Assembly: GCF_018977255.1 (NCBI RefSeq)
Contig: NW_024704742.1
Location: 7,132,001-7,196,000, forward strand
Source: Callorhinchus milii
Lineage: Eukaryota
Length of the DNA: 64,000 nt
Reading direction: 5' to 3'
Both the position numbers and the translations under genes were made by a program. Shown here one piece after another: positions 6,309-61,420 of the stretch; position 1 is the stretch's first letter; the number at the start of each line of letters is the position of its first letter. The notes beneath the pieces were generated by a model. The model saw only the letters and a program-made list of their open reading frames with translations, did not search any database and had not been told where the DNA came from.

Positions 6309-6828
6309 AATAATCATTGCATTTGATATAGCACCTTATCAGGTAGTTGAGACGTCTCAAAGCGCTTCACAGAATATACTGTATTATTGTGGGCAAAACT
6401 TGGCAGTCACTTGCAAAGATCAGACTCCCACAAACAGTCGTGGATTGATGGAAAAAACTATTTATTTATTCCATCTGTCCATCCATGTATCTGTGTGTCC
6501 ATGTTCATGCAACCCTAACCCGTATGTATGTATGTATGTATGTATGTATGTATGTATGTATGTATGTATGTATGTATGTATGTATGTATGTATGTATGTA
6601 TGTATGTATGTATGTATGTATGTATGTATGTATGTATGTATGTATGTATGTGTGTATGTGTGTATGTGTATGCGTGTATGCGTGTATGCATTTGTTTGTT
6701 TGTTTGTTGTTTGAAGGGATTATAACCCCCAGAAAAGCGATTTGCCAATCTACCAACAACCGGGTTCCTATTTGCTGTGCTTTCGCTTGCGAGGCGAGTG
6801 CTCTAACCAACACGCTACATGACTCCAC
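6309..6828 (-). mobile_element. Young SINE split by an internal microsatellite
   Basis: Tail at 6309-6450, central module and head at 6710-6828. Confidence 0.8.
6522..6712. repeat. (GTAT)n microsatellite grading into (GT)n and (TTTG)n
   Basis: Pure GTAT run at about 6522-6650. Confidence 0.98.
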
Positions 6829-9629: not shown

Positions 9630-9895
9630 ATCCACCGCAATCATTTTCTCTTCTCCAAAGGTTTCTCCTCTCGCCCCCACACGGTCACTTGTGGCGTACC
9701 CCAAGGCTCTATTCTCGGCTCTCTCCCTTTTCTCATTTACATGCTCCTCTTAGTGATATCATCCGCAGAAAGCGGATGACACCCGAATCTATTTTTGCTC
9801 CTCTAGCTTTGCCCGCAGGACCACTGATGATCTCTCTGCTTGCTTGTCTGACGTCAAGGCCTGGATGAGCGGTAACTTTCTGCCTCTGAATATGG
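9630..9895 (+). mobile_element. L2 reverse-transcriptase fragment (decayed)
   Basis: ACTTGTGGCGTACCCCAAGGCTCTATTCTCGGC encodes TCGVPQGSILG, the non-LTR RT motif; later CLSDV.AWMSGNFLPLN. Confidence 0.8.
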
Positions 9896-59300: not shown

Positions 59301-60106
59301 CAGACAATAAAAGACTGGTCAGAAGTCTTTAGTTCCCCTTCTTGCATCCTGGTAGTCGCATGTTACAAAGGAGGCCTATTGAGAACATCATCAACTAATA
59401 GAACGCATAAACTTTCCACACGTAATGAGCTGTGAATATTTTGCATCTAATGAATGCTATAGGAACTGTTTACATATTAATGTGGTTTAATCAAACACTT
59501 CCCTTGACGTAAAATGGGCATAGAAAGTCGCATTCTGCTTCAGGCTGGCTGATTCAGTCTTCTTGTTGCCGGATAAGAGATGGGCTGAGTTGGACTACGG
59601 TGACTAACGGTGCTTAAATTATTTAGGAGTGAATTATTTGTCAATCATTATCCCTAGCCAGCAAAAGAACCTGATGGCAACTGTCCTGAACTATACTGCA
59701 TCAAAGCTCAGAGTCCAAGTAAACAAATTGACAAGGAAAAATTAGCACGGCCATCCTAATCTATATTCCTAATGCTTAACAGTTGGTTTGTCTTCAGAAC
59801 AGTGTATTTCATTGAATTTATTTTTCTCCCTGAATGTTTTAGCACCCATAAAAAACTTCTCAGGGGCTCGCAGTGGGAGCACTGCAGCTCGATAACCCCA
59901 ACACTTACACATATGCTTTACGGCACAATGTTGCACTAACTGTCCTGAGAAATGGCCAAATTGTTCTTGGAGGTACACAAATCCTTGAGCAAGGCTTGAC
60001 AACCACCCAGTGGGCAAAACACTGGAGGTGCTGGAAATCTGAAATAAAAACAGCAGTCGCTGGGAACACACAGGAGGTCAGACAGCATCTATGGAGAGAG
60101 GAAATT

Positions 60107-60145
60107 GAATTAACGGTTCAGGTCGATGACCTTTCATCAGAACTG
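60107..60145 (-). ncRNA. Minimal type I hammerhead ribozyme motif (GAAA mutated to GAAC)
   Basis: Minus strand CAGTT-CTGATGA-A-AGGTC ATC GACCT-GAACCGTT-AATT. Confidence 0.55.
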
Positions 60146-60164
60146 CTCTGACTGCTGTTCTGTT

Positions 60165-60202
60165 CAGTGCTGACGAAAGGCCATCTACCTGAAACGTTAA
60201 CT
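60165..60202 (+). ncRNA. Minimal type I hammerhead ribozyme motif (weakened stems I and II)
   Basis: CAGTG-CTGACGA-A-AGG CCATCTA CCT-GAAACGTT-AACT. Confidence 0.55.
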
Positions 60203-60424
60203 TACTTTCCTCATATATATATATATAAAATATATATATATAAAATATATATGTGGCTCCCTATATGCAGCCTGACCTGCTGCATGTTCCCAGGTCTGTA
60301 TTTACATTTGATAACCCAGTAACTGGTTTGCCTCAGCCAGTGAGGGCAGGAGCCATCTTGTAACCAAACACAAAGCACTACCTGAATCAGCCTGCCATCA
60401 CCTGGCAGGGGCTGAGGGGGGCGG

Positions 60425-61203
60425 TGTGGAGTCCTGTAGCTCAGTGGTTAGAGCACTCGCCTCGCAAGCGAGAGACCTGGGTTCGATTCCCGGCAGGGTG
60501 AAATGTTGGGCAAGTTTCCTTACTCCACGTGCTTCTGTTTTCCTAGCAGTAAGTAGAAACTTGGTTGTTAGTCGATTTTCTGGGGGAATAATTCCTTAAA
60601 AAAAATGGTCACTTTAATCCACGATTGTTTGTGGGACAAAATATACAGTCAATTCACTTTACAGTATATTCTGTGAAATGCTTTGATCCTCATCCTCACC
60701 TTCGAATTCAAGATCCTCATCCTCACCCACAAGGCCATTCACGGCCTCGCTCCCTCCTACCTCTCCGACCTACTATCCCCCTACTTACCTGCTCGTACCC
60801 TCCGTTCCTCCGGCTCCGGTCTGCTCCACATCCCCCGCCCCAACCGCCCTGCCATCAGTGGCCGGGCCTTCAGCCTCTCAGCCCCGAGGCTCCGGAACTC
60901 CATCCCTCAGTGCCTTCGCTGCCTCCTCCCTTTCCTCCTTCAAGGCCGGTCTCAAGACCTTTCTCTTTGACCGTACCTTCAGTTCCCCTCTCGACTCTCT
61001 ACCCCCTCCTCGCTCCCTCCCTTCCCTCACCCTGACCATTTCCCCCCTGCTCGGGTCCTAATCTGATCCTGACCCAACTGTCCAGCGCCTTGACGTGAAA
61101 GTCGCTCTATAAATGAAATCTTGTTGTTGTTGTTGTTGTTGAGACATCTCAAAGTCGTAATAAGGCACTATATCAAATGCAAGGATTATTATTATTATAT
61201 TAT
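60425..61203 (+). mobile_element. Young SINE long form (60425-60686 and 61140-61203), split by L2
   Basis: Cleanest head TGTGGAGTCCTGTAGCTCAGTGGTTAGAGCACTCGCCTCGCAAGCGAGAGACCTGGGTTCGATTCCCGGCAGGG. Confidence 0.9.
60687..61140 (+). mobile_element. Young L2 3' end
   Basis: EFKILILTHKAIHGLAPSYLSDLLSPYLPARTLRSSGSGLLHIPR; (TTG)n tail. Confidence 0.92.
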
Positions 61204-61224: not shown

Positions 61225-61420
61225 TTCTTAGAAGGATCTTGAGACAGGTCTTGAAGGAGCCAGGGAGGTTGTGAGGCGGAGGGACTGTGGGAAGGGGTTC
61301 CAGAGGTTGGGGGCAGAGAGGCTGAAGGCTCGCACACCAATGCTGGGTCGGGCAAGGCGGGGGACATGAAGCAGGCCGGAGCCTGCTGAGAGGAAGGAGC
61401 GGACAGGTTGGTAGGGTATA
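61225..61420 (-). mobile_element. L2 fragment
   Basis: GGGGCAGAGAGGCTGAAGGCTCGCACACCAATG. Confidence 0.7.

Follow-up and report, generated by a model that had tools for sequence, protein, structure and literature searches.

The locus considered here raises the question of what brought two hammerhead motifs side by side onto opposite strands, and whether either of them still works. The window, meaning the whole 64,000-nucleotide stretch of DNA analysed, holds two inverted, head-to-head copies of one repeat, at 60013-60145 (minus strand) and from 60165 to about 60305 (plus strand), each opening with a minimal type I hammerhead on its own strand. The pair is probably made of worn end pieces of a Penelope-like element (PLE) left by one old insertion, of a kind already published. 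Very probably this was the work of endonuclease-bearing PLE machinery, by which the pseudo-LTR (pLTR) end was copied twice and joined head to head.

The inverted pair and its two hammerheads

Aligned to each other, the arms are 83% identical in their initial 48 nt (E 2.6e-9) and 81% identical in another stretch of 37 nt, which bears out the first-pass annotation in its description of inverted copies of one unit around a short spacer; all the motifs that it named also sit where it had placed them. The right arm holds as an inverted copy with altered limits, since it starts at 60165, has its firm end at 60303-60307 and is split by a (TA)n microsatellite at 60213-60252, which had gone unmentioned; a repeat scan recovers this tract, and the left arm has no counterpart of it. 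Both arms start at the identical family base, five before C3, on either side of a 19-nt spacer (60146-60164). Contig depth, loose contig ends and arm homology define the left arm as a 5'-truncated PLE-type 3' end (a pLTR piece) that opens with stem I and closes at the 3' end shared by the family, 60013, which is 121 nt past A9. The right arm, delimited by homology to the left, is a second 5'-truncated copy whose firm homology stops about 87-91 family positions past A9 and opposite 60048-60044, leaving some 31 nt (60013-60043, minus strand) on the left arm only.

Regarding the borders, 59996-60011 and 60308-60320 agree at 12 of 13 aligned letters with one 3-nt gap, and the sole mismatch, at 60000, disappears in a contig of organism B carrying the right-copy letter. 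These stretches are probably the decayed left and right copies of a target-site duplication (TSD) of 13-16 nt, and the left-arm-only stretch is likely a PLE 'tail', both judged from sequence. As a weak alternative to both, the right arm may extend to 60332 with faint homology, whose score is equalled by 8.6% of 4,958 controls. The TSD is moderately supported, 251 of 19,838 edge-anchored controls (1.3%) scoring as high, and its competition with this extension counts against a PLE insertion; tail and TSD together are the favoured reading. Sequence comparison and the covariance model described below revealed no further family copies elsewhere in the 64-kb window. A 15-nt inverted repeat (93%; 59543-59557 and 60382-60396, 824 nt apart) brackets the arm pair and may be due to chance.

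The left hammerhead (60107-60145, minus strand) comprises CTGATGA at 60140-60134, a 5-bp stem II and GAACCGTT at 60119-60112. Its CUGANGA core, extra A and stem II are intact; core position 15.1 (60116), which is important in hammerheads, is changed, so that the palindrome is broken too, and stem I holds one wobble at 60109. The right hammerhead (60165-60203, plus strand), with CTGACGA at 60170-60176 and GAAACGTT at 60191-60198, keeps the core and the ACGU palindrome; its first stem I pair, adjoining the predicted cut site, is broken (60169), and its stem II is shortened to 3 bp (60181). In both copies, the first stem II pair (10.1-11.1) is A-U and not G-C. Cleavage after U17, as had been foreseen, is supported by the sequence and would fall between 60112 and 60111 on the left and between 60198 and 60199 on the right.

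A strict descriptor, demanding 4-bp stems I and II, had no match in the window and none in 40 Mb of simulated sequence; as it matches neither local copy, neither is intact. The relaxed descriptor (core, 3-bp stem II and palindromic minimal stem III) had one match in the window, the right copy, and 15 in the simulated 40 Mb, and for the bare core pattern the 2 matches in the window do not exceed what chance would give (1.33 expected). The hammerhead models of Rfam, a search proposed earlier, found nothing in the window even at E up to 10, whereas a custom covariance model of 47 metagenome motifs placed the right copy (E 1.2e-6) and the left copy (E 1.6e-3) first and second among the 16 matches listed, the next having an E of 0.84. 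This model is partly circular, because the pattern of core letters that gathered its motifs was derived from the window copies. Moreover, its rows were picked for stem I pairing, 53 distinct motifs giving the 47-row alignment after six rows (L020, L036, L072, L085, L086 and L096) had been dropped by eye, and stem pair counts on that alignment are therefore excluded as evidence. Weak matches of the window to microRNA and sRNA models of Rfam lay far below the gathering scores and were rejected as hairpin and AT effects.

An RNA reading through both arms is predicted to form a hairpin with a folding energy of -41.5 or -50 kcal/mol (z-score -7 to -10), in which each hammerhead core would pair with its own complement, burying both; lying on opposite strands, the two ribozymes cannot pair within one RNA. 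Most likely, both local copies are dead and do nothing. They had been expected to be weak or dead, and the failure of the strict descriptor and the lesions at 60116, 60109, 60169 and 60181 agree with that. There is a very slight chance that the right copy still cleaves. For this, a plus-strand transcript starting in the spacer would have to pair in trans with another RNA that contains one of the thousands of family copies, or a PLE protein would have to fold it. In that case, the dispersed solo hammerheads would provide sites all over the genome at which RNA is cut conditionally.

The repeat family and the history of the pair

Contigs of four of the 24 listed runs were aligned onto 59900-60212 at 80% likeness, a threshold favouring agreement with the local copy and not disagreement at 60116. 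The aligned contigs numbered 4,927 and 1,047 in two runs of organism A, 4,632 in organism B and 3,669 in organism C, figures that are contig counts and not copy numbers. A single arm represents a very abundant family, present in organism A and the two others: in run X1, a flank depth of 8.9 contrasts with as much as 368,548 on the arm, the rise from 8.9 past 1e5 taking place within 60010-60031, and in all four runs loose contig ends accumulate before 60013, forming a sharp common 3' end. In four of four runs, the consensus of these loose ends finishes with a comparable A-rich word, about 10 nt long; the family may include copies that extend a little beyond the left-arm end, or the target may be AT-rich.

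The majority letters of the family depart from the local copies precisely where these are damaged. In X1, 40,425 of 41,161 depth units at 60116 (core 15.1) and 64,785 of 69,157 at 60109 (stem I) differ from the left copy, as do 493 of 533 at 60169 (stem I) and 8,539 of 8,704 at 60181 (stem II) from the right copy. The letters at 60109, 60169 and 60181 complete a stem I of 4-5 bp and a stem II of at least 4 bp, the core CUGANGA ... GAAA ... UH is satisfied, and by inspection the majority letters conform to the strict descriptor. Because they repair every damaging local change, the master copy of the family had a complete minimal hammerhead. The idea that an intact ancestor could be reconstructed is thus confirmed independently, the majority differing at exactly these four positions, and the identification of minimal type I hammerheads is upheld by the motifs in place, the model E values and the majority letters together.

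No alternative letter reaches 10% at 60134-60140, 60117-60119 and 60112-60113; for 60174 and 60186 no other letter is listed, and these may be subfamily letters, the fold being possible with both. Minority changes are mostly CpG-type, including those in the palindrome (60114/60115), where they amount to 13-26% of depth in X1, X8 and X13 and fit neutral decay. Within the arm family, two-sided stem covariation was absent at 10% of depth or more, and a one-sided, wobble-compatible change at 60111 reaches 6-21%. Hence, of the family conservation that had been anticipated, CTGANGA/GAAA is kept in the majority letters and the two-sided covariation at that level did not appear. A hammerhead likeness arising by chance within an unrelated repeat would explain the chance-level core pattern and the silence of the Rfam hammerhead models; it retains next to no probability, given that the strict descriptor, absent from the simulated 40 Mb, fits the family majority letters and that the covariance model matches both copies.

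Behind 60145, loose ends share an upstream consensus in three runs, and so part of the family is longer than the arms. In three runs, 22-27 nt ahead of the arm start, this consensus has a TATA-like word, with an agreement of only 0.40-0.46; as a lead only, it hints at a transcription start or a splice acceptor where stem I begins. A promoter and an intron in the pLTR are features of endonuclease-bearing PLEs. If the shared start at stem I were the true 5' end of the RNA, it would be relevant to the role of the PLE hammerhead, which is still open according to PMC8557442 and PMC11167929.

The first-pass annotation had further proposed a fold-back element with one ribozyme per strand, that is, an inverted pair mobile as such. 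The arms do have a common start position on either side of a short spacer, and other copies show strand-switch joints. However, the spacer bin 60153-60163 is near single-copy in four of four runs (depth 17.8, 10.6, 54.5 and 10.1 vs 8.9, 0, 36.7 and 0 on the flank), and the arms are thousands of times deeper than the spacer; with spacer and flank near single-copy, it is not as a pair that the sequence has spread. In addition, the seven strand switches inside the left arm, among the 15 of 80 joints listed, use seven different point pairs, and the read-through hairpin would pair the cores with their complements. The fold-back proposal is therefore largely refuted and very improbable. The spacer itself may be a remnant of a tandem copy: it resembles the arm's own 3' part, at a level found in 0.4% of 4,963 controls, but the organism B contig differs there at four letters.

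One contig of organism B (run X8) reaches from the flank through the left arm and the spacer across the right hammerhead; organisms A and B therefore share the insertion, which predates their split. No contig of the organism C run covers the flank, which does not prove that the insertion is absent there, and none of run X5, tentatively taken to be RNA, does so either. Between organism B and the window, the flank differs at 10 of 106 letters (9%) and the arms (60014-60211) at about 32 of 179 (18%; p 0.058). The excess in the arms could come from CpG loss, alignment error or conversion among copies, and there is no sign that the inverted pair is under constraint. These data bear on the suggestion that the host has kept a working element, either a hairpin RNA or a ribozyme with a host transcript as its target. 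Its presence in two organisms whose flanks have diverged this far, the complete core letters of the right copy and the z-score of the hairpin would suit such a role. Against it, the arms diverge more than the flank, both copies fail the strict descriptor, and a hairpin is expected from any inverted insertion. Published activities are also discouraging: in PMC4209133, intact minimal hammerhead ribozymes (min-HHRs) do not cleave as monomers and do so little as dimers, and in bioRxiv 10.64898/2026.07.22.740005, eight of nine Xenopus dimer elements were uncleaved. Host retention is accordingly highly unlikely.

The probable link to Penelope-like elements and the proposed course of the insertion

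Neither the window ORFs, nor tblastn, nor the translated arm revealed a reverse transcriptase (RT) or GIY-YIG ORF tied to the arm family. Pfam gave no match to 150 of the 159 window ORFs of at least 75 aa; tblastn of the window with GIY-YIG ORFs and 24 PLE-type proteins gave no significant PLE match; and the translated-arm protein search, a weak one, yielded 14 candidates, none at E 10 or better. The local sequence has no ATG after G8, and all three left-arm frames hold a stop. A missing ORF in the window is expected for truncated copies. The earlier proposal to look for copies joined to such an ORF thus came out empty in the window and was answered in other families of the same motif class.

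Exact and looser motif scans returned 0 metagenome contigs, 0 viral contigs and 0 prokaryote genomes. The loosest scan of metagenome contigs gave at least 121 stretches, 120 of which were taken as loci in 117 distinct contexts, some of them looking bacterial. Among the matches listed, none of the 120 loci has DNA similarity to the arms; they are other families, and the PLE link of the arm family consequently rests on motif and geometry. Also among the matches listed, a GIY-YIG-like remnant occurs in 29 of the 120 loci, on the same strand and 15-217 nt upstream of the hammerhead in 22 of those 29, and a partner motif lies head to head in 17 loci, tail to tail in 1 and in direct order in 2, several of the head-to-head ones less than 40 nt apart. 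Relatives of the GIY-YIG ORFs carry RT and then GIY-YIG in three of four scanned. Head-to-head minimal hammerhead pairs of other families are found in L064 (1460-2270), L032, L093, L099, L116 and L120; L064 has GIY-YIG remnants upstream of both motifs, and its RT fragment is not counted as a PLE link.

Stem I, which lay outside the search pattern, has at least 4 contiguous pairs in 84 of 125 motif matches among those listed, at least 3 Watson-Crick pairs in 19 of 40 distinct strand pairs (shuffled mean 5.6, maximum 14) and full pairing in 9 distinct strand pairs (shuffled mean 2.5, maximum 9). The 3' ends of the motif class form two clusters near 80 and 130 nt. For the two main families, whose membership is only roughly assigned, they fall at 70-92 nt (22/50) and 125-135 nt (19/50) in one and at 66-88 nt (17/37) and 122-138 nt (16/37) in the other, among the matches listed, and copies starting at most 35 nt from C3 make up 20/44 and 18/35, respectively (38/79 in all). 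Given these ends and partners, the geometry in the window is ordinary for such elements. Motif, insertion geometry and these loci with GIY-YIG remnants lend support to the PLE-type origin proposed at first reading; we infer that the arm family belongs to a PLE, motif and geometry providing the link.

Published systems point in the same direction. In the account of Cervera and De la Pena 2014 (PMC4209133), truncated PLEs have left thousands of dispersed solo min-HHRs, and pairs on opposite strands occur. The local copies share with these pLTR ribozymes the type I order, the CUGANGA core and one extra nucleotide before stem II, a stem I of 4-5 bp, no real stem III and a palindromic 15.2-16.2, besides thousands of dispersed solo copies and opposite-strand pairs. 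Unlike them, their first stem II pair is A-U (the G10.1-C11.1 pair is highly conserved, not invariant, in that account), stem II has 4-5 bp, both copies are damaged and no ORF is seen; the local cores are 30 nt apart, compared with about 100-700 bp in the pairs of S. mansoni. The A-U pair, the lack of an ORF tied to the family and the lack of two-sided covariation at 10% or more count against the reading as a PLE insertion. According to PMC4209133, PMC6765202 and PMC11167929, min-HHR activity is low, absent in monomers and dispensable for insertion in vitro.

Concerning the insertion itself, the sections of Craig et al. 2021 (PMC8557442) and Arkhipova et al. 2013 (PMC3846280) on endonuclease-bearing (EN+) PLEs list head-to-head inverted 5'-truncated copies, a one-sided tail of 30-40 nt and a short TSD as their traits. 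The local pair resembles those of Penelope/Poseidon, Neptune and Nematis in its head-to-head 5'-truncated copies with a shared 3' end and, on the favoured reading, in its one-sided extension of about 31 nt and probable short TSD; unlike EN+ PLE units, both copies are reduced to the pLTR end, and the clade is unassignable without an ORF. A similar geometry is that of PAc, a Poseidon of Anolis carolinensis (Frangieh et al. 2024, PMC11167929), in which RT starts 111-118 nt past the stem II start and the 30-40 nt tail lies between two start sites. Both systems would have the hammerhead about 110-120 nt upstream of the RT start and two start sites bounding a tail; the local end lies 121 nt past A9 vs 111-118 nt for one or other of the PAc start sites. 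The PAc ORF starts at stem II, unlike the local copies, which have no such reading frame, as noted above.

Taken together, the order of events would be as follows, with the insertion anatomy, the internal RT starts and the dimer- or protein-assisted cleavage borrowed from the literature. The element RNA would carry a minimal hammerhead in its pseudo-LTR; in the ancestral RNA, cleavage after U17 would proceed either in a dimer formed through the palindrome or with the assistance of a protein. An RT-GIY-YIG protein would nick the target and start reverse transcription within the RNA, at two sites lying about 90 and about 120 nt past the hammerhead core. The two cDNAs, each stopping where stem I starts, would then be joined head to head, which would account for the inverted arms, the tail on one side and the short target duplication. 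The local copies have since decayed.

The donor may instead have been a short non-autonomous PLE derivative of about 125-135 nt, similar to a retrozyme, that a PLE protein copied in trans; this would involve the same enzyme and the same dead outcome with a different template. The common start base of the two arms would agree with such a unit, as would the loose ends at 60143-60144, which have no shared upstream sequence and rank among the top rows of X1 (53 and 47), and a joint that goes back 123 nt, as in a tandem unit. Li et al. (bioRxiv 10.64898/2026.07.22.740005) describe the non-LTR retrozymes of vertebrates, including one cartilaginous fish, as derived from PLEs; the local pair is similarly short, non-coding, hammerhead-bearing and PLE-related. 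However, those retrozymes by definition consist of tandem units in direct order and contain two or more intact ribozymes, whereas the local pair is inverted, has none intact and forms no array, and the tandem joint is the only one among the 15 of 80 joints listed. Moreover, the upstream consensus behind 60145 indicates that some copies are longer, and starts near the core are common in GIY-YIG-linked families too. A non-autonomous donor is thus unlikely, and copying from the pLTR end of an endonuclease-bearing PLE is the reading retained.

Significance and neighbouring repeats

As it stands, the pair is one more decayed PLE end among thousands and has little significance, apart from offering a clean example of PLE insertion anatomy, with two RT start sites and a head-to-head junction. 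It would matter if family copies cleaved host RNAs in trans. No description of the arm family was found in the papers and supplements searched, the supplements giving neither a species nor a motif match; an earlier listing in another supplement may exist.

The surroundings are rich in other repeats. A SINE with a tRNA-like head lies at 60428-60690 (plus strand; Rfam tRNA at 60430-60501, 62.8 bits), and the window holds eight tRNA-like matches and many related SINE pieces. Next to it, 60700-61200 (plus strand) and 61230-61416 (minus strand) are two inverted LINE-like 3' fragments (141 nt, 72%), which we take to be L2-like and which have many relatives in the window. Farther away, a short stretch at 9666-9770 resembles a fragment of LINE-type reverse transcriptase (tblastn E 2e-4), and a (GTAT)n microsatellite of 36.5 copies occupies 6522-6667.
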